Shown here piece after piece: positions 3,309 through 63,800 of a stretch of DNA of 64,000 nt (position 1 is its first letter; each line of letters opens with the position of its first letter). Position numbers and translations under genes: made by a program. The notes below the pieces were generated by a model. The model ran no database searches and was not told the DNA's origin. It worked only from the letters and a program-made list of their open reading frames with translations. The stretch comes from Torpedo marmorata (taxonomy: Eukaryota): assembly GCA_977017645.1 (NCBI GenBank), contig OZ360222.1:133672001-133736000 (forward strand), written 5' to 3'.

Positions 3309-4922
3309 TCCTGAAATGTGTCTTTTGGTACATTTGATTTTGCAGCAGTGTTCTAATACTAATCTAGTTGAATGTTTGAAAGGTTTGCAAAGTTGACTTT
3401 CTGATTCTATTTTGATAATCATTGGTGAAGACAATTAATTTAAAAAATGGTTAGTTCGCGCTTGAGCAATTTAGTGTCTGCTGAGTTAACTACAGCTTGG
3501 ACTCTGCTGGGTAGGCTTAGATTGCTCATCTGTGCAAATTAATCGAAACAGAATTTCCCATGAGAAAACTATTGAAGTGTGTGTGTGATATATGGGGGAA
3601 AAAGACGGACAATCCTTCGTACTATGGATGGTTTTGGATTTATTTCTAAATGTGATTATTTCCCTTTCCAGTTGATATTTTCCATGACTTTAATTTGTTG
3701 AGATTTTAAAGTAGCTTCTGAATTGCATAGGTTAACTTAAAGCAATAGCTATATCTAGCAGCCCCCCACTTGAAGTTGAAGCAATTATTCTGAGATTTTA
3801 CCAGGTATTAATCTTCTGTTGGAGCTATTCGAGTTATCCAAAATGAAGTTCCAAGAAAAATATTTTGATTACCGTAATTTACAAAATGGATAAAGTTAAT
3901 TTTGGAATTGTAAAGATTTATAATAGTTCACAGGCACAGTTTGCACACTTGATTTTGTGTTTGCAGAAGTTTGCTACTGATAATTAATGGGTTTTTTTCT
4001 AATTAATGAGCAGTTTGGAATTTCAGAATGTTAAAATTGACTTGCATAGAAACATTTTTAGAATTTACTATCTTGGTTTGGGTGTGCTCACAAGACTTGG
4101 TTCCTGAATCCAAGACGATTCATGCATCTCTTGCAGTTTTCTTTGCATTAGTTTATAAAGCTGGACAGAAGTCCACCTGGAAGTCTGATACTGTGGTAAC
4201 TTAAAAGTTATTCATTTGTTTCCCACATTTCCCATCCCACATTTCCCATCAATATTGTTAAAGTTAACTTTGTATCTAGATGTCTTGCTGTAGTTGCACT
4301 AAGTTCAGTTTTGCAGCTACTTAAAATATTTTGCCCCTTCCCCAAAATCCCCGTTACACTGAGAGAAGAATACGGAGGAAAGAAATGTATGGGAACATAG
4401 AGCAGTGCAATGAAAGAAACTACCAAAATAACAGGCTGATCATTTAACCTTTGCTACTGGACAGATCAGAGATGGAATTAAATTGCTTTTCAGCAGTCAT
4501 TTTCAGCGTCACAAGAAGTGCCCGAGCACTTTGTATCTTTCTGAGCAATGAGCAACATTCTGCATGCCAATAAGAGATTTTGCGTTTCAACCAGCCTGCC
4601 AGTTCAATATGTGCTTTTAAATGAATATTAAGATGGCGGGTCAAATGATGTCAGCCCGTTATTCAGTCGGTCTTGTGATTCAGGGTAGAAACCAAATGTG
4701 ATGCTGCCTGAGGAAGGATTTGACTTGCACCCTTTCTGACTCAGTTGTGCTAGGTCTGAAAATAAGATGATATTGTACTTGGTGAATCCTGCTGTGTCCC
4801 TCCGAACAGTTACTCTCTTGTGTGAAAGTTGGCTTCAAACTTTGGAAAGTCTGCCTTAATGTTTATTTATAAGTAACAAGAGCATCAATACACAAAGCAA
4901 AAAGGAATACCTTTCTAGAAAC

Positions 4923-5812
4923 TCAGAATCAGAATTTATTGTCATGAACAAGTCATGAAATTCGGTGTTTTGCAGTAGCATCATAGTGCAAACATTCATA
5001 TTATAACTATCTTACGACATTACTACAAAAAAAAGTATAAATAATAGTGCATGAAAAGTGAGGCAGTGTCTTTGGTTCATTGATTATTCAGGAATCTGAT
5101 GGAAGCGGGGAAGAAGCTGTCCTTGTGCTGTTGAGTGCTCGACTTTAGGCTCCTGTACCTTTTTCCCGATGGTAGCCGAGTGAAGAGGGCATGGCCTGGG
5201 TGGTGGGGGTCTTTGAGGATAGAGGCTGCTTTTTTAAGGCAACGCCTCGTGTAGATGTCCTCGATAGAGTGAAGTCTGGTGCCTGTGATGTCACAGGCCG
5301 AGTTAACAACCCTCTGGTGTTTATTCTTGTCGTGAGAGTTGGTGCCCCCATACCAGGCAGTGATGCAACCAGCCAGAATGCTCTCCACGGTACACCTGTA
5401 GAAGTTTACGAGAGTCTTCGGTGACATACCAAATCTCCTCAGACCCCTCACAAAGTATAGCCGCTGACGAGCCTTTGTGATTGCATCAATGTGGAGGCTC
5501 CAGGACAGATCCTCGGAGATGTTGACACCCAGGAATTTGAAGTTCTTGACCCACTCCACTAATGATCCCTCGATGAGGACTGGGTCGTGTTCCCCTGACT
5601 TCCTCCTGAAGCCAACAATAATTTCCTTGGTTTTGCTGACGTTGAGCTCAAGGTTGTTGTCGTTACACCATTCAACGAGCTGATCTATCTCCCTCCTGTA
5701 CACTTCCTCATTGCCGTTTGTGATTCTGCCGACAACTGTGGTGTCATTGGCAAACTTGTAGATGGCATTGGAATTGTGCCTTGCCACACAGTCATGGGTG
5801 TATAACGAGTAG
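4923..5812 (-). mobile_element. Rex1-Babar LINE, 5'-truncated (RT C-terminus)
   Basis: ORF 5077-5787: KFANDTTVVG (FADD mutated to FAND), LELNVSKTKE, FKFLGVNI, KARQRLYF, FYRCTVESIL, DSFFP; tail GACAATAAATTCTGATTCTGA. Confidence 0.9.
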
Positions 5813-5823
5813 ACATTCTTTAG

Positions 5824-6099
<276 letters not shown>

Positions 6100-6403
6100 T
6101 AAACACTCTCATAAAACTTGAAAGGTGACTGATTTGCTTTGCATGCAACAATAATTTTTGGGACATAAGATTTTACTTTGCCAATAGCGTAATAGTATTT
6201 GTAGAGTTAATTACCAGAGAGTAGTTTATAAACACGATCCAAGAGCAGCACAAAAGCAGTTAGTAAATGGCTGAAAATTAGGTTAACACTTTGGGTTCTG
6301 ATGACTCCATGACTCAAGCTGATCTTTTCTGGCTAATTGAAGTTTTTTTTCAAACTTGTTGGGCATTTAACCAGATGCATTTTCATCTGCATTGCACTTC
6401 CAG

Positions 6404-6523
6404 ATTTGAACTACTGCGGGACGCGCCAGCCTTGCTTGAATGGTGGCACCTGCAGCAACACTGGGCCTGACAAGTACCAATGCACTTGTCCCGATGGCTA
6501 TTCCGGCCAAAACTGTGAAATAG
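6404..6523 (+). CDS. JAG1: Jagged-1 exon 7 (EGF3)
   Basis: ttccag|AT...ATAG|gtgagc; 120 nt; [39 protein letters not shown]. Confidence 0.97.
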
Positions 6524-6639
6524 GTGAGCTCTACGACGGGCACTCGGTGATGGCAAAACCCTGTTGGTTCCATTTTCTTGTTTATCTCCGGGTCCAAGAA
6601 TTCTTCATTTTGGTCCTCCGAGCTAATTTAAACAATGGA

Positions 6640-6991
6640 CAGATATCAAGATGAAGAGTAAGAAGGGACATGATTAAGGTATATACAATTGTAATGGGTG
6701 TAGATGGGACAATCTGCATGAAGCTTTACCCCATATGAGAGGCAGATAAAGCAAGAGGAGACCGGGTTTATGGTGAGTAGAAAGAGATTTGGATATTAGG
6801 GGGACCTTCACCCAGAGTATAAATATCTGGAATGGACTGGTGGAGAGTCGTTGAAACTGGGTCGCTGTCAGCATTTAAGGAGGAGCACTTGCCTAGGCAT
6901 AGAAGGCCATGGGTTAAGAGCTACAAGATGGGATTAATACAGAAGCATGCTAACTAGTTAGTATGGATGTTGGGCTGAATGGCCTGTTTTT
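6640..6991 (+). mobile_element. Degraded CR1 3' end; its terminal motif is split by an L1 and resumes at about 9010-9030
   Basis: CR1-type text (ATCTGGAATGGACTG, CATTTAAGGAGG) ending GGGCTGAATGGCCTGTTT...GTGCTGTATGATT. Confidence 0.7.
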
Positions 6992-8993
6992 TTGTTTTTT
7001 TATTATTTTAAAAATTTTAAATCACAAAATACATAAAATAAAATATGAAATTATCAAATACTTGTGATACATTTTCACCCTCCCAACCCCACTAATCTAA
7101 TAAAATAATTTAAAAAAAGAGAAGAAAGCGAAAAGGATAAGGTAAGGAGAATGTCAATCTAATAAATACATCTGTAAACTAATTCTATTATGGAGGTTAG
7201 GTAGCCAGTAGATCCATTGTCCAGAGATCTTCAAATCCTTAAGCCAACAGCTTTCATATAGGGCTCCATATTTTTAAAAAGAAATGATATTTATTCCGTA
7301 AGTTATAAGTAATTTTTTCAAGTGGTATACACGAACGAAGTTCTGCATGCCATCTTTCTAACCCTAAATCTACATCAGATTTCCAAGTAATAGCAATACA
7401 TTTCTTTGAAACAGCTAAAGCAATTCGCAGAAATTCTATTTGATACATATTTAATTTCATCTTACTACTAAATTTTCTAATATCTCCAAACAAAAATATC
7501 ATAGGATCCATTGGAAATGTAATCTTAAATACTTTATCTAAAATTTTTTTAACTTTCAACCAGAAATCATAAACTTTTAGACAAAACCATGTAGAATGTA
7601 CAAAAGAACCTTCCTCTTTATTACATCTAAAACATAAACCTGATAATGTCAGATTAAATTTCTTTAGTCTTTTAGGTGTTAAATATAATTGATGAAAAAA
7701 ATTGTATTGTACTAATCTATATCTAACATTAATAATTTTCGTCATACTTACTTTACATAATTCTTTCCAATGATTTTCATCTATTGTTACATTCAAATCT
7801 AATTCCCATTTTAATCTTGATTTATGAATTCTTACTTTAGGAATTTTCCTCTGAAACAATTTATACATTTGAGAAATAAATTTATTTACATCTCCTTTAG
7901 TAACTAATAATTCTAATTCATTCTGTCTTGGTAAAATCAAAGCATAACCTAATTTCTCAATCAGAAAAGCTCTAATTTGATAATAAGCAAAAAGTGTATT
8001 ATCTAATATATTAAATTTATCTTTCATTCTTTGAAAAGTAATACATTTCCCAGCTTCAAAACAATCATTTATTTTCTTAATTCCTTTTTAAATATTTTTT
8101 TAAAATTTTAAATCACAAAATACATAAAATATACAGTTATGAAATTATTTGTGATACATTTTCACCCTCCCAACCCCACTAATCTAATAAAAATATAAAA
8201 TAAAAATAGAAAAAGAAGAAAGAGAAAAATAGAGTTAGGGGAATGCCAATCTATAAACTACTTCTATTATGGAGGTCAAGTATGCCAGTAGACCCAATAC
8301 CCAGAGATCCTCAAATTCTTAAGCCAACAGCTCTCATATATGGGCTTCTTAATTCCTTTTTGAAACCAAATTTTAAATAATTAATTATTAATAGTAAATG
8401 GAATAAGTCCATTTTGATATAAAGGCATCCTTGAAGAAATCAATCCTTTTCCTCCTATTTCCTTATCCGTCTTATTCCATATTTCTAACAAATGTTTAAG
8501 AATAGGAGAATTTTTCTTTCTTGTTGATATTAATTTAGAATCCCATTTATAAATACCGGTAACTTCTTCTTTGGAATCTTCTCCTATATTTAGTTCTATT
8601 TTAATCCAAGCAGAAGATTTAGTTGAATCAAAAAATTCATTAACAAATTTTAATTGAGCTGCTTTATAATAATTTTGGAAATTAGGAAGTTGTAAACCAC
8701 CCATTTCATAATTCCAAGTTAATTTTTCCATACCTACTCTTGCTAACTTTCCTTTCCATAAAATTTTCTAATAATTGAATTTAAATCTTTGAAAAATTTT
8801 TGAGGAATTTCATAAGGAATTGATTGAAAAAGATATTGAATTCTTGGCAAAACATTCATTTTAATACAATTTACTCTTCCCATTAAAGTTATAGGTAAAT
8901 CTTTCCAATTTTCTAAATCCTTTTTTATTTTCACAAATAATGGTAAATAGTTTAATTTATATAAATTAGCCAATTTTGTGTCAATCCTTATTC
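6992..8993 (-). mobile_element. L1-clade LINE, 5'-truncated, with 17-bp TSD
   Basis: ORF pieces GRVNCIKMNVLPR, GGLQLPNF, CFRC-x7-H-x4-C; poly(T) at left; TSD CTGAATGGCCTGTTTTT at 6975-6991 and 8994-9010. Confidence 0.93.
8090..8345 (-). mobile_element. Short 3' end of the same L1 family nested in the previous element
   Basis: Repeats the 3'UTR seen at about 7005-7265; TSD TTCTTAATTCCTTTTT at 8074-8089 and 8346-8361. Confidence 0.9.
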
Positions 8994-9394
8994 CTGAATG
9001 GCCTGTTTTTGTGCTGTATGATTACTTTCTATAAGGAAATATGACACTGGGGCATGTGAATCACAATGGTTGCAGTACAAAGGACATTCAATCCCTTGAG
9101 CATATGCCAGCTGTGAAGCTGCAGTTGGACTGGTGCATGCATCCCCAGAGCCCTGCAGAGTTTCACCTTCAAGTAGCTTAAGCTGTTCAGTTTTGAATGC
9201 AATAGAATCTGCCCCCATACTCTCCCAGACCCTTCATTCTGGGTCCTAACTGCTTCAAGCTTCAACTATAACATTAGTTTTTCTGCCAGTCACTTTCATT
9301 TTCTCCACCATTATATTCAGCTTCTGTATGCTCTACCTTGTCACTTCTACATTTTACATGCCTCTGTTACATCCCTTAACATCTCCAGTTGTGC

Positions 9395-16276: not shown

Positions 16277-17341
16277 AAGTAAATCACGAAAATCTGTAGA
16301 CACCGTGGTTGAAGTAAAAACACAAATGCTGGAGAAACTCAGCAATTCAAACAGTGTCTTTTATGTAGCAAAGGTAGAAATACATAACTGACGTTTCGGG
16401 CTTGAGCCCTTCATCAAAGTATGAGAAAATGCCGGCAGGCGTCCGAACAAAAGAGTGGGGGGGGGGGGCGGAAGGGGTGGTAAAGGCAGGAGATGATAGG
16501 TGGAGAAAGGAGGGAGGGGACAGCAGTAATGAGGGGGAGGAGGGATGGCTGGGTGGGAAGGCAGGGGAGAGGAAAGGCTAGCAGGATTAGTGGAAAGCAG
16601 TAAAGTCGATGTTCATGCCATCTGTCTGGAGAGTGCCCAGACGGAAAATAAGGTGGTGTTCCTCCAACTGCGGGTGGTCAGGGTTGGATAGTACTCAAGG
16701 CCATGAACGGACATGTGAGCGCGGGAGTGTGACTCGGAATTGAAATGGTTGGCCACTGGGAGGTTGCTGTTGTTGCGAACAGAGCGGAGGTGCTGAGCGA
16801 AGCGATCTCCCAATCTGCGACCGGTCTCTCCGATGTAGAGAAAGCCACAAAGGGAGCACCGGATGCAGTAATTAAGTCCTCTGGAAGTACAAGTGAAGTG
16901 TTGCTTCACTTGAAAGGCCTGTTTGGGGCCCCGGACCGTGGTGAGGGGGGAGGTGTGGGCGCAAGTGTTGCACCTCCTGCGGGTACAGGGGAAGGTGCTG
17001 GGGGTGCGATGGGTGGCGAGGGATGAGTGCACGAGGGAATCGCGGAGGGAGCGGTCCCTGCGGAAGGCCGAGAGGGGAGGAGAAGGAAAAATGAGTCTGG
17101 TGGTGGGGTCCTGTTGTAAGTGCATGAAATTCCGAAGGATAATGTGTTGGATGCTGAGGCTGGTGGGGTGGTAGGTGAGGATGAGGGGGATTCTATGTTT
17201 GTTGCGTCAGGGGGCAGAGTGGGCCAGGGCAGATGAGCGGGAAATGGAGGAGATGTGGGTGAGGGCTGAGTTGATGGTGGTGGAGGGAAGCCACATTTGT
17301 GGCAGACATTTCAGAAGATGATTTCAGAAGGTCGGTTTTAT
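16277..17341 (-). mobile_element. Penelope-like (Neptune-type) element 3' part, nested in the L1 3'UTR
   Basis: GIY-YIG motif NYCIRCSLCGFLYIGETGR, Cys motif CTRRRCNTC; closely similar to 52280-53345; possible TSD TTGTATAAT at 16268-16276 and 17342-17350. Confidence 0.92.
16383..16423 (-). ncRNA. Putative minimal type I hammerhead ribozyme in the Penelope-like 3' region
   Basis: - strand reads CATACT-TTGATGA-A-GGGC-TCAA-GCCC-GAAA-CGTC-AGTTATG. Confidence 0.55.
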
Positions 17342-41580: not shown

Positions 41581-42032
41581 ATTTCCTGGTCCCTTTGCTG
41601 AGCTCTGTAATCACTGTTGTTTGGATCTGTTGCTTCGTAACATTATTCTTCTGGTGGATACGGCGTCGAAGAAAACACAGCAGTCCCACTCCGGGGTCTG
41701 ATGACACCACAAACAATGTTCGAGAGCAGCTGCATCAAATAAAAAATCCCATTGAAAAGCACGAGACAAATAGTTCTGCCAGCAAAGACTACGAAAACAA
41801 AAATTCGAAAATTGCCAAAATAAGGACGCACAATTCAGAGCTTGAAGAAGTAGATGTAGACAAGCACCAACAGAAGACGAGGTTTTCCAAGCAGTCGGCA
41901 TATACACTGGTAGACAGAGATGAGAAATCTGTACAAGGCACTCCTACTAAAAACCCCAATTGGACAAATAAGCAAGATAACAGAGACTTAGAAAGTGCAC
42001 AGAGTTTGAGTCACATGGAATACATTGTATAG
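41581..42032 (+). CDS. JAG1: Jagged-1 exon 26 coding part (TM helix, intracellular domain, PDZ-binding MEYIV end)
   Basis: cagcag|AT acceptor; [33 protein letters not shown] and stop-transfer; [24 protein letters not shown] and terminal MEYIV-stop are typical of JAG1. Confidence 0.97.
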
Positions 42033-43600: not shown

Positions 43601-44490
43601 TTTTGATACAACAATGTGCTACTGTTATGTGCTTTCTTTTAAAACGTGCATTTCCATTTCTAAAACATGAACATAATTGGTTCTAAAAAAAAATACCTGT
43701 TGGACTGATCTGCTCTGCAAATTTTATTTTTGATTATTACAAAATAACATTGGCAATCCTAGTATCTTCAAACAATTGCCTCATATAATACATTACAGTT
43801 CACTCAGTGTTTTCAAACTGGAATGTATCTTAAATTCTGGGGCATTTGCAACAAGCTTTGTCAAGTTAATCAGCTTTATACGTGACTGTTAATATTAACT
43901 TTCCAAACCCCTCTCTACTTGCATTCTACTACATTGGCTTCATTTGTCACTTGGTCTTCTAACTGATTTGTGACCAGACACCATTTCTGAAGTGGAGATG
44001 CTGCTGTACTCTGGCTGTGTCGTATACTTTGTTCCTAGAAGGTATCTGTAGGTTTATGTTGCTGCGCAGTGTAATACCTTGTTTAAGTACTGGCTTCCCA
44101 AATCTGTGGTTGCATTAGTATTGTCAAACACCTTTTGTATGTTACTTTCTCGTTCTTGCTCTCCAGGTTGTCCCAATTTGATTGAGTTGTTGCTACATGA
44201 CAAGTGTTTGATTCTTTGTAAATGTCTGTATGGTATGAATTTTTTGTGCCCATTTTTCATAAAATCCCAATAAAATTTTTGAACAGAAAATTCTGATTTT
44301 ATGAGAAACATTACACTCAAAGCTATCACTCTGTTTGACCAGGCTATTATGTGGGTTGAGGGGTGATACTGTGAGAGATTAACAGGAAAGGAAATCAACA
44401 GGAACTGATCCTTGGACTAAAAGCTTTATAAACACAGGAGTCATTCAAAAACTGTTGATGGTAATGGTGCTCGAACTCCAGATAGAGCTA

Positions 44491-44592
44491 AAAAACACAC
44501 ATGCTGGAGAAACTCAGCAGGTCAAACAGGGTCTTTTGTAGCAACGGTAGAAATACTTCAACCAAGGTGTCTACAGATTTTCGTGTTTTACT
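44491..44592. mobile_element. 102-bp Penelope-like insertion with internal inversion and 14-bp TSD
   Basis: TSD TCCAGATAGAGCTA at 44477-44490 and 44593-44606; antisense then sense pieces of the PLE 3' tip. Confidence 0.88.
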
Positions 44593-45943: not shown

Positions 45944-48900
45944 ACAATAGACAATAGGAGCTGGAGTAGGCCCTTCGGCCCGTCGAGCCAGCACTGCCAT
46001 TTTACATATCATGGCTGATCACTACTATCAGTACCCCTTTCCAGCCTTATCCCCATAACCCTTAACTCCTCTGCCCACTAGAGTCTTATCTAACTCTCTT
46101 TTGAACATAATCAGCGAATCTGCCTCTACCACCCTCTGTGGCAGAGCATTCCACAGATTCACACTTCTCTGGGTAAAAAAAATTTTCCTCATCTCCGTCC
46201 TAAAGGGCCTTCCCTGTATTCTTAAACTATGCCCTCTAGTCCTCGTCTCTCCCATCATTGGGAACAAGTAATCCGACTTCACCCTGTCTATCCCCTTGAT
46301 AATTTTGTATACCTCAATCATGTCCCCCCTCATCCTTCTAAACTCCATCGGATACAAGTCCAGTTTTTCTAGCCTTTCAGCATATGTCAACCCTGCCATC
46401 CCTGGAACTAACCTTGTAAATCCGCGCTGCACACCCTCTATAGCTAGTATGTCCTTCCTCAAATTTGGAGACCAGAACTGGACGCAATACTCCAGGTGGG
46501 GTCTCACCAGGGCCCTGTACAACTGCAGAAGGGCGTCTCTGCTCCTATACTCCAATCCCCTCTTTATGAAAGCCAACATGCCATTTGCCTTCTTCACAGC
46601 TTTCTGAACCTGCATGTTAGCCTTCAGTGACCGGTGAACAAGTACACCCAGATCCATTTGCACTTCCCCACTCCCTAGCTTGTCTCCATTTAAATAATAC
46701 TCAGCTTTCCTATTACTGCCCCCAAAATGGATAACTTCACATTTGCTCACATTGAACTTCATCTTCCATTCTTCAGCCCACTCCCCCCAACCTGTCCAAG
46801 TCCCTCTGCATTTTCCTGACATCCTCCTCACACTTTACACCGCCACCCAGTTTAGTGTCATCTGCAAATTTGCTCATGTTATTAATAATCCCATCATCCA
46901 AATCATTTACAGAAATGACAAACAACTGAGGACCCAACACCGATCCCTGCGGCACTCCACTCGTCACATCCTGCCATCCTGAAAAAGACCCGCTTACCCC
47001 AACCCTTTGTTTCCTATTTCTTAACCAACTTCCTATCCATGTCAGCACCTTACCTCCAATACCATGCTCCCTGATCTTGCCCACTAGTCTCCCATGCGGG
47101 ACCTTATCAAAAGCCTTCTGGAAGTCCAAATACACCACATCCACTGGCTCTCCCAAGTCCACCCTCTTTGTCACATCTTCGAAAAATTCCAGAAGGTTAG
47201 TCAAGCATGACTTACCCTTAAGGAATCCATGCTGACTAGCCCTTATACTATTATTTCTGCCTAAGTGTTCTGCTATTACTCCTTTTATGATAGATTCCAA
47301 TATCTTCCCCACCACTGACGTCAGGCTGACCGGTCTATAATTTCCCGTTTTCTCCCTCCCTCCCTTCTTAAAAAGTGGCACCACATCAGCCACTCTCCAA
47401 TCCACAGGGACCTCCCCCGAATCTATGGAACTTTGGAAAATGTCGACCAGTGCCTCCACAATTTCCAGAGCAACCTCTTTAAGCACCCTGGGATGCAGCC
47501 CATCAGGCCCTGTGGATTTATCAGCCCTCAGTCCCAACAATTTACTCACAACCTTCTGCTTCTGGATCCGGATATCCATCAGATCCCCTACTTCCCCAGG
47601 AAAGTTCCCCAAGTCTCTTGATACCGCATGACCACTACCCCCTAACTGACCATAACCTATATCCTCCTTGGTGAAGACAGATGCAAAGTATTTGTTAAAT
47701 TCCTCAGCCATTTCCTTGTTTCCAGTAATAATTCCACCCTTTTCCATTCTTAATGGACCAATTTTAGACCGAACCAATTTCTTCCTCTTCACATATTTAA
47801 AAAAGCTTTTGCTATCCTCTATTATATTATTTGCTAATTTCCTCTCGTATTTCATTTTTCCCCTCTCGTATGACTTTCTTAGTTACCCTCTGATGTTCTT
47901 TGAAGGTTTCCCAATCCTCTAACTTCCCACTCTGCTTCGCTATCTTATACTTACTCCCTTTGGACTTGATATTGCACTTGATTTCATTAGTTAGCCACGG
48001 CTGCCATTTGCATCTCCTAGAGCCTTTCCTCCACTTTGGAATGAATTTGTCCTGAATCCTGTGAAAAATGTCCAAAAATACCTGCCATTTTTCCCCAGTT
48101 GTCCTCCCAGCTAGTGTATCTTTCCATTTTATTTTGGCTAGCTCCTCCCTCATAGCTGCATAATCCCCTTTATTTAACTGCAGTACAGATGCTTCCGACT
48201 TCCTTTCTTTTTCCCTTTCTAATTGCAGATCAAAAGTAACCATACCATGGTCACTATTCCCTAATGGCACCCCTACTTCAAGGTCACTTATTAACTCTGC
48301 GTTGCTGCACAGCACCAAGTCCAGAATCGACTTCCCCCTGGTTGGTTCCTCCACTAGCTGCTCCAAGAATGTATCTCGTAGACATTCTATAAACTCACTC
48401 TCTTGTGTTCCTGCCCCCGTCTGATTTTCCCAGTCCACCTTCATGTTGAAGTCCCCCATAACTACCGTATTGCTACCACTTTGACATGCCACTCTTAATT
48501 CCTGATTTATACTACTTCCTATATCTGAGCTACTTTTCGGAGACCTGTAAATGACCCCCATTATGGTCCTCATGCCTTTGCAATTTCTTAATTCTATCCA
48601 AACAGACTCTACCCCACCTGTTTCAATGTCTTTCCTTTCAAACGCCTGAATTTCATTTCTTACCAACAGAGCTACCCCACCTCCTCTTCCTAATTTTCTG
48701 TCCTTTCTATAGGACGTGTACCCTGGAACATTTCCCAATCCTGTCCCTCCCGCAGCCATGTCTCCGTTACTCCGATAATGTCATAACCTCCCATTGCCAT
48801 TTGCGCCTCAAGCTCATCCATTTTATTCCTTACACTACGTGCATTCATATACAATACCTTGATACCATATCTCCTTTCTCCCTCCACCTTTGTTCCTGAT

Positions 48901-51483: not shown

Positions 51484-51700
51484 AAAACACAACGTGCTGG
51501 AAAAACTCAGCAGGTCATGTAGCATCCATAGAAAGTAAAGGGTAGCCAACATTACAGCCCCAGGCCCTTTATTGGGAATAAGCCCAGGCATGAAACGTTG
51601 GTCACCCTATACTTCCTATGGCTGCTACGTGACCTGCTGAGTTTTTCCAGCACATTTGTGTATTGCATTTGACCCCTGCATCTTCAGATTTTTCTTGTTT
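51484..51700. mobile_element. Palindromic element built from two opposed Penelope-like 3' ends
   Basis: Perfect 24-bp inverted repeat GTGCTGGAAAAACTCAGCAGGTCA at 51494-51517 and 51630-51653, extending imperfectly inward. Confidence 0.8.
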
Positions 51701-51921
51701 AAATTCTCGAAAGCTCTGTACCTTTTCCCTATTCTCTCTTCTTAAGATGCTCCTTTAAATAGTGATTTTTTTGTACAATGTTACAGGCACATGTAAAGCA
51801 AGCTGATATTTCTGAATGTTGTCGTCAAGCAAATGAGAAGAAAATTCATGTTTAGAAGAAAAATTATTGATTACTTGAAATTTGCTACGAAGACATTAAA
51901 ACAAGGAACCTGTACAGAATC

Positions 51922-53345
51922 CATGCTGCAAGCCTACACAGGCAAGACCCCTCATCTCTTCCTCCGGTATATCGACGACTACATCCGGGCTGCCTCATGC
52001 ACCCACGATGAGCTTGTCAACTTCATCCACTTCGCATCCAACTTTCACCACGATCTCAAACTCACCTGGTCCATCTCCGATAACACTCTCCCCTTCCTGG
52101 ATCTCGCTGTCTCCATCTCGGGAGACAAGCTTTCCACCGACATTTACTACAAACCCTCCAACTCACACAACTATCTGGACTACACATCCTCACACCCTGT
52201 CCCCTGCAAGGACTCCATCCCCTTCTCTCAAGTTCTCCGCCTCCGCCGCATCTGTTCCCAAGATGAGGTGTTCCACTCCAGATCTTCTGAAATGTCTGCC
52301 TTTTTCCACAAACGTGGCTTCCCTTCCACCACCATCAACTCAGCCCTCACCCGCATCTCCTCCATTTCCCGCTCATCTGCCCTGGCCCCCTCTGCCCCCA
52401 GACGCAACAAACATAGAGTACCCCTCATCCTCACCTACCACCCCACCAGCCTCCGCGTCCAACACATTATCCGCCGGAATTTCCGGCACTTGCTGCAGGA
52501 TCCCACCACCAGACACATTTTTCCTTCTCCTCCCCTCTCGGCCTTCCGCAGGGACCGCTCCCTCCGCGATTCACTCGTGCACTCGTCCCTCCCCACCCAT
52601 CGCACCCCCGGAACCTTCCCCTGTGCCCGCAGTAGGTGCAACACCTGCACCCACACCTCCCCCCTCACCACAGTCCAGGGCCCCAAACAGGCCTTCCAAG
52701 TGAAACTACACTTCACTTGTACATCCAAAGGACTTATCTACTGCATCCGGTGCTCCCTTTGTGGCTTTCTCTACATTGGAGAGACCAGTCGGAGATTGGG
52801 AGACCGCTTTGCCGAGCACCTCCTCTCCGTCCGCCGCAGCAGCGACCTCCCAGTAGCCAACCATTTCAATTCTGGGTCACACTCCCACGCTCACATGTCT
52901 GTCCATGGCCTCATGTACTATCCCACCCAGACTACCCGCAAATTGGAGGAACAACATCTCATATTCTGTCTCGGCACTCTCCAGCCAGATGGCATTAACA
53001 TTGACTTTTCTGCTTTCCACTAACCTGTTTGTTGTTCTCTCTCCCCCCTCCCCCCTCACCTGTTTTTTTCCACCCACCTAGCCATCCCTCCTCCCCCTCT
53101 TTGCTGCTGTCCCCTCCCTCCTTTCTCCACCTATCATCTCCTGCCTTTGCCACCTCCCTTCCCCCCTCACTCTTTTGTTTGGACGCCTGCCGGCATTTTC
53201 TCATACTTTGATGAAGGGCTCAAGCCCGAAACGTCGGTTATGTATTTCTACCTTTGCTACATAAAAGACACTGTTTGACCTGCTGAGTTCTCCAGCTTTT
53301 GTGTTTTTTACTACATTATTACGGTGTCTACAGATTTTCGTGTTT
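51922..53345 (+). mobile_element. Penelope-like (Neptune-type) retroelement, 5'-truncated, open RT C-terminus and GIY-YIG endonuclease
   Basis: FLRYIDD, LPFLD, TDIYYKP, CARSRCNTC, GLIYCIRC...YIGET, stop at 53023; TSD ACCTGTACAGAATC at 51908-51921 and 53346-53359. Confidence 0.95.
53202..53242 (+). ncRNA. Putative minimal type I hammerhead ribozyme; predicted cleavage after C53235
   Basis: CATACT-TTGATGA-A-GGGC-TCAA-GCCC-GAAA-CGTC-GGTTATG. Confidence 0.55.
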
Positions 53346-54499
53346 ACCTGTACAGAATCGTTGTCTGACAGATTAGCCACATCGAATTCTGGACACATTT
53401 GAGAAGGTTTAAATAATCTCCTATTAAGGCATTCCAATGTAATAAACCTATGATTATGAAATACAATGTTCATGTGCAGCTCTCTGAACTTCATTTGACC
53501 AGTGGGGTATCTGAAGTCAACCTAACAATTTCCTGATCTGTTTATGAAAAATTAGTAGCAGCTGCTAATTCTTTTGATTAATGTGACCTTTGGTCTATTT
53601 TAAGTGCAAAGAAAATAAAGCTCACATTTATGAAGTGGTTCCCATAGCAGATTTTGCAAATAAATTCTCATTTCTCTGTTTGGTCTGGCTGCATTCTTTG
53701 TGAATCTATGGGATTCGGATGGATCAGCTCTGAGGGATAATCTTGAATTATGTTTGTTTTTAATTTACTTTGAAACGGTAAATCAACATATAGATACATG
53801 ATGTCCAGAATGATGCTATTTTAATATTAAAATTGATGTGTGCACATGCAAATTCTATTCAATAACTTTTTTTTAGAGAACTTGACATGTTCGCCTTTAA
53901 TTAGACAAGTCCTCATTGCAGGAATTAAATGATTTTATGCACAGACTCAAATTAGAGACGTTAGACTTTCTCTAGCTCATGCAAAAACTTGCTGCGAATG
54001 AGGGTAGCAAAGAAATGGGGTCTAATGTTCCAACCCTATTTCGAGCTGCATTGATCCCTGGAGATCCCTTGATAAAACGGAGGTACACACATTGAAGTTG
54101 TCTGATATGCAAGGACAATTTAAAAGCATTTCCACGTTTGAGAAAATGAGGAAGCGCAGAATGAGGAAAAAGGCCATTTGAACCATTAAGTTTATTCTTT
54201 AATTGTAATAAATAAATCCCAAACTACCCGTCGAATTATCGGAGGAAAATAAAAAGATTGTTGAATATCATGACATCGTTGCTATGTTATTTATTCTGTA
54301 CCGACTTACCCTTGTAATGTTTAATAATGCTCAAGTAGCCTAACACATCAGAAACAATCATGTCCCACTAACCATCTTTTAATTTCTTCTAATCTTTATC
54401 TCCTTAATATTGAACTTTCACCTTTTTGAAAAAAAGTGACAAAATATGAACTGATTTTACTGACATTTCAAACATTATGCAAATGAAAATTGCCTCCCT

Positions 54500-54784: not shown

Positions 54785-55214
54785 TATTGACATCTACTCC
54801 TGAAATCATCCCATCAGATTTTTCTGATGTGCATCAGTATCTTATTCTGACTTTCAAGTATGTGTTGTTAAGGACAGAAGTCACAAATTTACTGACAGAT
54901 TCAAAATGCATCATAATATTGAGATCTTCCAGTATTTATACTGGGAAATCATTTCATTTTTTTTAAACCAAGAGTAATCTAAAACAACCATGTTTTATTT
55001 TGTTCCTTCCTGTTCTACTTATTCAATACTTCTGATTTACAATATTTATTACCTAAATGCGCTGTTCTAACTTTGATTTTATCCCTGTAAATGTAAGTTC
55101 CTCAATTATTTTGTACCTCTGTCTGTCAATCAACTCAATGGAATTCCCTCCTAAAAAAAACATTGAAAAATAGAAAAGTAACAAAACAAAGTCTGTCAAA
55201 AAATCTTCAGAAAA

Positions 55215-57490
55215 AAGCATTTGATAGGTTAGAGTGGAAGTTTTTATTTAAGGTTTTAGAGAAATATGGATTTGGAAATACGTTTATAAATTGGATTAAA
55301 ACTATATATAAGGAACCTACAGCTAAAGTAATTACAAATGGTCAAATATCATCTAAATTTTCTTTGACACGGTCAACAAGACAAGGATGTCCATTGTCAC
55401 CTGCCTTATTTGTATTGGCAATAGAACCGTTGGCGGAAATGATCAGGAAAGATATGAATATAAAAGGGATAAAAGTAGGTGCAGAAGAGCATAAAATTAG
55501 TTTGTTTGCAGATGATGTATTAATATATATGACAAAGTCTATTGAATCACTTCAACAATTAGATAAAATATTGAGGGATTATGGTGAAATATCTGGATAT
55601 AAAATAAATTCGGATAAAAGTGAGATAATGGCTTTATCTCAAGGAGATTATACTAAATGTAAAGAAGTTACAAAATTTAAATGGGCTAAAGAAGCTATTA
55701 AATATTTAGGAGTTAAAGTGGATACAAAGTTAGAAAATTTATATAAATTAAATTACATACCTTTATTTCAGAAAATAAAGAAGGATTTGGATAATTGGAA
55801 AGATTTACCTATAACTTTAATAGGAAGAGTGAATTGTATTAAAATGAATATTTTTCCAAGAGTTCAATATCTTTTTCAATCTATACCTTTTGGTATTCCC
55901 CAAAAATTTTTTAAAGATTTAAAAAGTATTATTAGAAAGTTTTTATGGAAAGAAAAACTGGCAAGAGTAAGTATGGATAAATTAACTTGGGAATATGAAA
56001 TGGGTGGATTACAACTTCCTAATTTTCAATATTATTATAAGGCAGCACAATTAAAATTTATAAATGAATTATTTGATTTAACTAAAAACACGGCATGGAT
56101 TAATATAGAATTAAGTAATATAGGAGAAAGAAATAAGGAAGATATTATTTATAAATGGAATTCTAAATTATTATTGATTAAAAAGAAAAAGTCACCGATT
56201 ATTAGACATTTATTAGAGATTTGGAATCAATTAGATAATGAAATAGGGCGAAAAGGATCAATTTCTTTAAATATGCCATTATATCAGAATTTATTATTAC
56301 CATTTTCTATGGATAATCAATTTTTAAAATTATGGTATCAAAAAGGAATTAAGAAGATTAAAAATTGTTTTGAGGCAGGAAGATTTGTAACTTTTTCCAG
56401 ATTGAAAGAAAAATTTGGAATAATGGATAATACAATTTTGGCTTATTATCAAGTTAAAGGATTTTTAGTTGAGAAATTAGGGAATCAATTAATATCTCCT
56501 AGACAGGATGGGTTAGAGTTACTAATTACTAATGGAAATGTTAATAAATTTATATCGCAAATGTATAAATTATTTCAGAAAAAGATACCTAAAGTAGGAT
56601 TGCATAAATCTAGATTAAATTGGGAATCAGATCTAAATACTAATATAGATGAACAACACTGGAAAGAATTGTGTAAATTGAGTATGACTAAGATTATTAA
56701 TGTTAGATATAGATTAGTACAGTATAATTTTTTTCATCAATTATATATAACACCCAAAAAATTAAAGAAATTCAATCCGGCATTGTCAGATATGTGTTTT
56801 AGATGTAAAGATGAAATAGGTTCCTTTGTACATTGTACATGGTCATGTTCGAAAATTAAAAATTTTTGGTCTAAAGTCAAAGATTTTTTAGATAGAATTT
56901 TTAATATTATGATTCCAATGGATCCTATGATATTTTTATTTGGAGATATAAAAAAAATGAGTATTAGAAATAGATTAAATATGTACCAAATAGAATTTTT
57001 ACGAATTGTATTGGCTATTTCAAAAAAATGTATTGCTATTACTTGGAAATCAGATTTAGATTTGAATTTAGATAGATTACATGCAGAGTTACGTTCTTGT
57101 ATACCACTGGAAAAAATTACGTATAATTTGCGAGACAAATATCATTTCTTTTTGAAAATTTGGAGCCCATATATGAGAATTATGGGTATGAATTAATTCT
57201 CTAAAAGTTAGTACCGCTGACAAAAGTATCCTCCATATATAAATAGAGTTAGTCTGAAATAGTTTTCTCCTCATACTAACTCTCTTAACTTTATTTCTCA
57301 TTCTATTTCTTTCCTTTTAACTAACATTTCTATATATTCTTTTTTTTTTCTCTTTATTAGAATAGTGTGGGAGGGCTGGGGAGGGAGGGAAGGGGGGTTG
57401 GTAAAAATATCACATGTATTTTGATAATATATTATTTTGATTATGTATTTTGTGATTTTAAAAATTAAATAAAAATTAAAAAAAAAAAAA
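55215..57490 (+). mobile_element. Young L1-clade LINE, 5'-truncated, uninterrupted ORF2 part, poly(A) tail
   Basis: KAFDRLEW, STRQGCPLSP, LFADD, YLG, CFRC...HCTWSC; TSD AAAAAATCTTCAGAAAA at 55198-55214 and 57491-57507. Confidence 0.96.
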
Positions 57491-60803: not shown

Positions 60804-63800
60804 ACACAAGATCACAAGATAAAGGAACAGAAGTAGGCCATTCGGCCCATCGAGTCTGTTCCGCAACTCCACCCTGAGTTAAACTGTTCTCACATCTAAT
60901 TCCAATTTCTGGCCTTTTCCCAATATCCCTTGATATCCTGACCATTCAGATACCTATCAATCTCCTCCTTAAAATCCCCCAAAGATCAGGCCTCCACAGC
61001 TGTATGTGGCAACGAATTCCACAAATCCACGACCCTCTGGCAAAAGAAATTCCTTTTCATCTCTGTTCTAAATGGGTACCCTCTAATTCTAAGACTGTGC
61101 CCTCTTGTCCTGGATTCACCCACCAAGGGAAACATCTTATTTCCATCTACTCTGTCCAATCCTTTCAGTATTTGAAATGTTTCTATGAGATCTCCTCTCA
61201 TTCTTCTATACTCCAAAGAATATAGACTGAGCTGCTAAACGTTCCTCATATGTTAGCCCTTGCATTCCAGGAATCATCCTGGTATATCTTCTCTGTACTC
61301 TCTCCAACATTATTACATCCCTTCTAAGATAAGGGGCCCAGAACTGCACACAGTACTCCAAATGAGGTCTCACCAGTGCCCCATAAAGCCTCATCAACAC
61401 CTCTTTACTCTTATACACTATTCCTCTTGAAATGAATGCCAACATAGCATTCGCTTTCTTTACTGCCGATCCAACCTGGTGGTTAACCTTTAGGTTATCC
61501 TGCACGAGGACCCCCAAGTCCCTTTGCACTTCTGAATTTTGAATTTTCTCCCCATCCAAATAATAATCTGCCTGTTTATTTCCTCTTCCAAAATGTACAA
61601 CCGTGCATTTCTCAACATTATATCTCATCTGCCATTTCTTTGCCCACTCTCCTAAGCTGTCCAGGTCTCTCTGCAACCTTTCGATTTCTTCAACACTTCC
61701 TACCCCACCACCTATCTTGGTGTCATCTGCAAACTTAGCCACAAAACCATTCAATCCGTAATCTAAATCATCTATATACATTGTAAAAAGAAGCGGCCCC
61801 AACACCGACCCTTGTGGAACACCACTAGTAACCAGCAACCAACCAGAACAGGATCCCTTTATTCCCACCCTTTGCTTCCTGCCTATCAGCCAATGCTCCA
61901 CCCAATCTAATATCTTTCCTGTAATTCCATGAGCTCTCATCTTATTAAGCAGCCTCTTATGCGGCACCTTATCAAAGGCCTTTTGAAAATCCAAATACAC
62001 GACATCCACAGCCTCTCCCTTGTCCATCCTACCTGAGATTACCTCAAAAAATTCCAATAGGTTGGTCAGGCAGGATCTTCCCTTCATGAAACCATGCTGG
62101 CTTGGACCTATCATGTCATTCACCTCGAGGTATTTCATAACCTCATCCTTGAGCATCGACTATAAAATCTTACCAACTACTGATGTCAGACTAATAGTCC
62201 TACAATTTCCTTTTTTCTGCCTCCCTCCTTTCTTAAACAGCAGAACTACATTTGCAACCTTCCAATCCTCCGGAACCATGCCGGAGTCTATTGATTTCTG
62301 AAAAATCATTTCCAATGCCTCCACAATCTCCAAAGCCACCTCCTTCAGAACCCGTGGGTGCACCTCATCCGGTCCGGGAGACTTATCTATCTTTAGTCCA
62401 TTCAGCTTATCAAGCACTATCTCCCTAGTAATCCTAACTGTACTTAATTCTATTCCCTGAGACCTCTATCAGGTATAGTCCTATTGTCTTCCTCGGTGAA
62501 GGTTGATGCAAAATACTCATTTAGTTCCTCTCCCATCTCTTGGTTACCGATTATAATTCCTCCAGCATCATTTTCAATCGGTCTTATATCTACCTGTGTC
62601 GCTCTCTTACTCTTTATATATTTTTTAAAAACTCAGTATCCTTTTGTATGTTATTTGCCAACTTCCTTTCATAATTCATCTTTTCTTTCCTAATGACTTT
62701 CTTTGTCTCTTTCTGTAAGTTTTTAAGTTTCCCAGTCCTCTGTTTTTCCACTAGTTTTTGCTTCTTTGTATGCCCTTCCTTTTGCTTTTATTTTAGCCTT
62801 AACCTCTCTAGTTATCCACATTTGTGCCATTTTTCCATTCATAATTTTCTTTTTTCTTGGAATATATTTATCCTGCACTTTCTTTATTTCTTGTAGAAAT
62901 ATCATCCAATTCTCCATCTAGCTTACTTTTCCAGTCAACCTGGGCCAGTTCTTCTCTCATACTACTGTAATTTCCTTTGTTCCACTGAAATATTGACACA
63001 CCTGATCCCTTTTCAAATTTAAAACTGAACTCAATCATATTATGATCACTACTTCCTAAGGGTTCCAATACCTTTAATTCCCTAATCACCTCAGGTTCAT
63101 TACACATCACCCAATCCAAAACCGCCGATCCCCTGGTGGGATTATCGACAAGCTGTTCCAAAAAGCCATCCCTTAGGCATTCTACAAACTCTCTCCTGCG
63201 ATCCAGTACCTTCCTGATTTTCCCAATCTCCTTTCATGTTAAAATGTTTAGTGTGTCCTTACCGCGAGTGTGTTTAAGATGGCGGCGCTTAGATTGCGAC
63301 GGCTTCTTGGCGGGTAAGCGGTTTGGACCTGGCTGTTTGTTTTGTCTGGCGCCCTTGCCTGCTGGGGATGGCGGCGCCTTAATTTGCAGCGGCTTCCTCG
63401 ACAGGTTGAGTGGTGGGCAGGGGCTGTTTTGGTTAGTTTTGTTTTGTTTATCAGCAGGCATTGTCTTGGCCTTGTCTCGTGTTTTATGGGCACTGTCCGG
63501 GGAAACTCAATTTCGTTTTACTCTATGTAAGTAGTGTAAAATGACAATAAATGATTCTGATTCTGATCCCCCAGAATTATTTTGACATTTTCCTTCTGAC
63601 ACGCTTTTTTTATTTCCATCTGTGACTCATAGTCCACTTCCCGGCTGCTGTTTGAGAGCCTGTATATAACTGCTAATAGGGTTCTTTTACCCGAGCCATT
63701 TCTTAACTCAACCCATAAGGATTCTACCACTTCTGACCCTATGTCCCTCCTTTCTAGTGATTTAATACCATTGCTTACCATCAGGGCCACGCCACCCCCT

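Follow-up and report, generated by a model that had tools for sequence, protein, structure and literature searches.

With moderate confidence, we interpret positions 53202..53242 (+ strand) of the window, the whole 64-kb stretch of DNA analysed here, as a minimal type I hammerhead motif in the pseudo-LTR (pLTR) of a young, abundant, Neptune-type Penelope-like element (PLE), in which a U3-G8 core has become fixed and which is likely a weak ribozyme, cutting only as a dimer or with the help of the element's protein and likely dispensable for insertion.

Motif and host elements in the window

An earlier sequence-only reading had reported two copies of the motif, at 53202-53242 (+) and 16383-16423 (-). 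Both match the letters it gave, the sole difference being G versus A at position 1.1, and the motif that it identified is borne out as a minimal type I hammerhead of a PLE pLTR with a U3 core. The first copy, delimited by sequence, folding and a descriptor scan, has its predicted cut after C17, at C53235 (+). The core of the class, (C/U)UGANGA...GAAA with an NUH cut triplet, is present on the + strand as UUGAUGA (positions 3-9; 53208..53214), GAAA (53228-53231) and GUC, and hammerhead numbering on this copy puts U3 at 53208. An extra A follows A9 (53215, +), as is typical of PLE hammerheads (PMC4209133), and stem II (53216..53227, +) consists of 4 bp, GGGC/GCCC (arms 53216-53219 and 53224-53227), opening with G10.1-C11.1 and closed by a UCAA loop. 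The palindrome ACGT (53231..53234, +) occupies the 15.1-16.1 segment in place of stem III, which could form only between two motifs, and stem I of this copy has six pairs and one bulged U in the folding computation.

A structural descriptor that accepts either C or U at position 3 matched twice in the 64-kb window and not once across 300 second-order Markov controls; Rfam covariance models returned nothing in the window at E ≤ 1, nor in the 151-nt motif stretch at E ≤ 10. A Watson-Crick pair between positions 3 and 8 (C-G or U-A) is absent, as U3-G8 can only wobble, and this state is fixed across the family. The missing pair lowers the expected activity and leaves membership of the motif class intact, because one published PLE example shares the U3-G8 state.

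The motif at 53202..53242 belongs to a 5′-truncated Neptune-type PLE copy (~51922..53347, +) comprising a YIDD RT end, a CX4CxxC linker, a GIY-YIG endonuclease (stop at 53021-53023, +) and a pLTR with hammerhead and tail, all flanked by a 14-bp target-site duplication (left 51908..51921, right 53346-53359). The hammerhead is placed 185 nt past the endonuclease stop and 150 nt ahead of where the next unit's ATG would lie. A second, shorter 5′-truncated copy (~16278..17319, -) lies antisense within an intron of a Jagged-like gene. Each copy is single and truncated, and the two are mutually opposite in orientation; both hammerheads are therefore without a partner and likely inert. Harm to the host gene was considered and rejected, since neither copy lies in sense orientation within the Jagged-like coding span (ending near 42029): the first is downstream of it and the second is antisense and intronic. 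The gene itself appears as Jagged1-like exons with EGF repeats at 6415-42029 (+), with a stop near 42029, and has a C-terminal motif that we take to support its Jagged1-like identity.

A non-LTR retrozyme, made of short non-coding tandem repeats with a hammerhead in each, was excluded as an identification: the window copies are single and stand behind an endonuclease ORF, and the tandem unit of the family is ~3.8-4.5 kb long and coding. The features of an EN+ PLE are in place, namely a single ORF with RT, a CX2-5CxxC linker and, at its C terminus, GIY-YIG, and partial tandems, inverted 5′ copies and an optional tail of 30-40 nt are all found in the family. In the first window copy this optional tail, recognised from family copies and by analogy with a published element (PMC11167929), is ~35 nt long (53313..53347, +) and lies between the two 3′ ends used by the family. 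The CX4CxxC linker suggests an element of Neptune or Nematis type, since a CX2-5CxxC linker marks these two clades (PMC8557442), which only a tree would separate.

Three further observations concern the surroundings of these copies. At 44489-44592, a very short stub holds tail sequence of this family in head-to-head arrangement; it lacks a hammerhead and is flanked by a 13-14 bp duplication. Just upstream of the first copy, two tail ends of an older PLE subfamily form an inverted, decayed pair (51484-51700). Other non-LTR-type RT ORFs (RVT_1) occur at 55097-57196, 46773-47882 and 61206-62159.

A young, abundant family with a fixed U3

Copy numbers were obtained genome-wide with sequence-pattern searches. 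The 26-mer that runs from U4 to U16.1 has 69,272 exact matches in the 6.2-Gb genome (reversed control, 0), and a protein search, with 102 candidates scored, yielded about 100 stop-free copies at 97-98% identity. Twenty long loci, picked mainly for long open frames, included six with two direct U3 motifs ~3.8-4.5 kb apart. These six full-length elements thus carry a hammerhead in both pLTRs; the 5′ pLTRs reach 431-1954 nt beyond the cut site in the upstream direction and share >99% identity with the 3′ pLTRs. Five of the six have an open ORF of 1197-1363 aa that begins with an ATG 150 nt downstream of the 5′ cut site, and the 1197-aa ORF contains RVT_1 and GIY-YIG domains, both scoring just below Pfam curated cut-offs. 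The family is a young and very abundant PLE retrotransposon.

The full-length ORFs of loci L218-L222 vary between 1197 and 1363 aa through a variable, proline/alanine-rich in-frame repeat of ~19 aa in the N-terminal half. At another locus, L226, six to seven tandem repeats of a 236-bp segment of the RT region remain in a single open frame with the remainder of the ORF.

U3 is not a product of decay in individual copies and is fixed in the family. A general motif pattern matched 106,161 times with U3 and 3,372 times with C3 (reversed controls, 48 and 19), so that U3-G8 accounts for 97% of pattern matches genome-wide. C3 was found in only 460 of the 69,272 exact 26-mer matches, and the C3 cases inspected (n = 20) were mostly single substitutions, one-base deletions or junctions. 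U3 was present in 30/30 loci sampled from the 26-mer matches, in 41/41 tail-anchored young copies and in both pLTRs of all six two-motif elements. It is common to at least four subfamilies with differing flanks and with U, A or G at N7. Older subfamilies with a GACTGCC or GGTTACC 3′ arm are mostly C3, in a sample enriched by the C3 pattern. Reading an upstream C as the true C3, followed by an inserted U, was rejected because stem I then breaks at its second pair; the U3 register gives stem I pairs C-G, C-G and A-U in an older subfamily. When four contig runs were aligned, 53208 was not among the 40 of 87 variable rows listed and a T>C at 53207 was, a weak hint that U3 is common to related organisms. 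Loci L167-L195 form a distinct U3 subfamily with A at N7, an upstream region unlike that of the young family and only two contiguous pairs in stem I.

The single difference between the window copies had been taken as a G-U to A-U exchange that keeps pairing, an interpretation that the family does not support. Position 1.1 belongs to a CpG, as its G, and has become A in 3/41 young copies; other CpG G positions are changed in 1-2 of 41, and C17 has become T in 6/41. The A at 1.1 in the second copy (16383..16423, -) is ordinary CpG decay.

Excess conservation of both core and stem II among genomic copies had also been put forward as a mark of function, and it was found for the core only. Forty-one young copies were chosen by their tail alone, nine older copies of the 50 having been set aside. 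A single change was seen at their non-CpG core positions, where 6.2 were expected (P ≈ 0.015, in a small sample of 41). Stem II had 9 changes against 9.0 expected and was kept no better than the flanks, and a change breaking one of its pairs was common to 2/41 copies. These counts give modest support to a core kept under constraint; the comparison is a weak one because copies decay neutrally after insertion, and subfamily differences are more informative. N7, loop 2 and the flanks vary from one U3 subfamily to another, yet the core is retained. Among 16 hand-picked copies, U4, G5, A6, G8, A9, A13-A15.1 and U16.1 were invariant and N7 was variable, an invariance that is partly circular because most of these copies were found with core-demanding patterns. 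In the same alignment, stem I pair 2.2-1.2 was C-G in 6/16 and U-A in 6/16; this covariation score was reached by 5/500 shuffles, could be produced by relatedness alone and possibly reflects a single event. Stem I pair 2.3-1.3 was unpaired in 11/16.

This pattern bears on whether the motif has no catalytic activity and survives either as a signal that the element's protein binds or that guides folding, or as a slowly decaying relic, which we consider unlikely. Apart from the variable N7, the U3 subfamilies all keep the rest of the core, G10.1-C11.1 and the ACGU palindrome, the deficit of changes in the non-CpG core points the same way within its small sample, and the presence of U3-G8 in a hemichordate PLE as well suggests tolerance rather than accident. 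A dead motif would, on the other hand, fit the Watson-Crick pairing of C3 with G8 in the active hammerhead fold (PMC3884650), the loss of activity in the Anolis Poseidon hammerhead after single C3G or G8C changes (PMC11167929), the U3 subfamily with just two contiguous stem I pairs and the high copy numbers still reached by Naiad PLEs that have no hammerheads (PMC8557442).

Cleavage, copy ends and the insertion template

Weak or dimer-dependent cleavage of the U3 motif is plausible. Alone, the 41-mer prefers a hairpin that pairs the core with the stem III side (-11.8 kcal/mol, versus -7.7 kcal/mol for the target fold), and the double hammerhead, at -13.7 kcal/mol, compares with -23.6 kcal/mol for two monomer hairpins and -31.0 kcal/mol for the best dimer. 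With 20 nt of flank, the target stem I pairs had a probability of at most 0.06. These nearest-neighbour energies leave out tertiary contacts. They agree, even so, with reports of low activity in minimal hammerheads of PLEs (PMC4209133) and with the protein dependence of cleavage in Anolis Poseidon, of which hammerhead mutants insert normally in vitro (PMC11167929). On the reading that we favour, cleavage by the predicted ribozyme would be infrequent and would take a dimer or help from the protein, and the U3-G8 wobble would make it slower still, because the C3-G8 pair that it replaces is a Watson-Crick pair in the active fold. Natural U3-A8 hammerheads are known (PMC3088659, PMC4209133), as is, from salterns, a U3 variant that carries a two-base insertion (PMC7151607). 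No cleavage rate for a U3-G8 core was found in the literature searched, which covers the most relevant papers incompletely.

The sequence-only reading had further proposed that the hammerhead defines the ends of the PLE RNA. Inserted copies neither begin nor end at C53235. In a tail-anchored sample of 99 copies, 73 of them young-like, 70/73 young copies run 5′ across the cut site and none ends at it; their 3′ ends fall +70 to +85 or +109 to +115 from the cut site (~75 or ~114 nt), forming a two-step tail. A genome-wide pattern for breaks within ~4 nt of the cut site gave 574 matches, and 30 inspected near-site breaks included 5-7 that start exactly at the site (1.1) and 3-5 at each of several neighbouring positions. 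It is thus very improbable, in our judgement, that cleavage after C17 sets the ends of a linear RNA that is then reverse transcribed. The 5-7 copies beginning exactly at 1.1 speak for such an RNA, but they extrapolate to only ~260-360 copies genome-wide, close to the levels of neighbouring positions; no tail-anchored copy ends at the cut site, and each of the six elements with two pLTRs continues beyond its 5′ site. At the DNA level this version is largely refuted.

Rather than at the cut site, copies tend to end at a position 32 nt upstream of it. A prior sample of copies had already pointed to position -32 when breaks there were counted. The pattern for breaks just upstream of the core gave 14,600 matches, and 29 independent loci comprised 14 longer copies in shifted register and 15 true junctions, seven of them at -32. 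By extrapolation the hotspot holds ~7,700 copies, versus ~260-360 at the cut site. Its equivalent in the first window copy, which reads through it, is 53204 (+). The sequence TCATACT, initiator-like by the known consensus, overlaps the hotspot, and an Inr-like TCACT is on record from a rotifer pLTR (PMC3846280). The hotspot may result from the start of transcription, an RT stop or an endonuclease cut. Two other origins were rejected: a shared TACT duplication, as several such copies have separate duplications of 9-15 nt, and a hammerhead-type cut at -32, as the preceding triplet is not NUH.

In a more elaborate account, which we regard as a long shot, the pLTR transcript would start ~33 nt upstream of the cut at TCATACT (also part of stem I), explaining the hotspot. 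The hammerhead would clip the capped 5′ end of the mRNA and sever 3′ templates from the RT start sites as a self-limiting brake, and C3-to-U would have loosened that brake, U3 lineages outgrowing C3 about thirty-fold in the 6.2-Gb genome.

The two-step tail suggests that uncut tandem or read-through RNA would be reverse transcribed from two internal start sites, which lie ~75 and ~114 nt beyond the cut site. The read-through of the cut site in 70/73 copies is also expected from a cut and religated circular RNA. In the model of Cervera and de la Peña (2014), tandem transcripts are cut by a double hammerhead and religated to unit-length circles, round which RT goes more than once. Inserts of more than unit length with 5′ pLTRs of variable length do exist, and 5′ and 3′ pLTRs agree at one segregating site in 6/6 elements. 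We nevertheless think the circular template quite improbable, since the pLTRs of L221 differ at a segregating site (A in 5/44 other copies), a difference that one circle would not give, and since the predicted dimer fold is unfavourable. The remaining differences between 5′ and 3′ pLTRs are too few to separate a circle from a tandem template.

Comparison with known systems

Minimal hammerheads (min-HHRs) in the pLTRs of metazoan PLEs were described by Cervera and de la Peña in 2014 (PMC4209133; review, PMC6765202). The motif reported here resembles that set in being of type I, in having only a palindrome for stem III, in the extra nucleotide that separates position 9 from 10.1, in G10.1-C11.1, in its pLTR location and in occurring mostly as solo truncated copies. 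The U3 core had been called unusual, and it is not without precedent: a PLE-linked motif of Saccoglossus kowalevskii in their Fig. S3 has U3 with G8, in the core UUGAAGA (PMC4209133). The families differ in scale, with ~4,000-9,000 min-HHRs reported in coelacanth and Xenopus and >100,000 U3 matches here, and in state, U3-G8 being the majority here whereas the accessible text of that paper discusses only compensated U3-A8 (PMC4209133). No paper on a genome-wide U3-G8 hammerhead family was found in the literature searched, of which coverage was incomplete; a 2026 animal-retrozyme preprint, in its available part, includes a single chondrichthyan, and the word 'core' does not occur there.

The Anolis Poseidon element (PAc) of Frangieh et al. 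(2024) likewise has, downstream of the hammerhead, two internal 3′ end points that are RT start sites and have a tail of 30-40 nt between them, and its insertion template is uncut RNA, to which we liken the template proposed here (PMC11167929). It differs in having C3-G8 and an ORF that starts at stem II, as against U3-G8 and an ATG 150 nt after the cut (PMC11167929), and the linker zinc finger of our element marks Neptune or Nematis, not Poseidon. The Neptune EN+ PLEs of Craig et al. (2021) share with it the C-terminal GIY-YIG, CX2-5CxxC linker, partial tandems, inverted 5′ copies, tail and pLTR hammerhead (PMC8557442). An ORF of ~1200-1360 aa with a variable proline/alanine-rich repeat sets the present family apart from that clade as described there. 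The function of PLE hammerheads has been called unclear and possibly parasitic (PMC8557442).

The motif and even its U3-G8 core are already described, so that its worth lies less in discovery than in offering a good test case, made useful by the combination of a family-wide wobble core and the -32 hotspot. Near-identical full-length U3 elements and older C3 relatives in one genome allow U3 and C3 to be compared, and placing the two on one backbone could show whether cleavage helps or hinders transposition.
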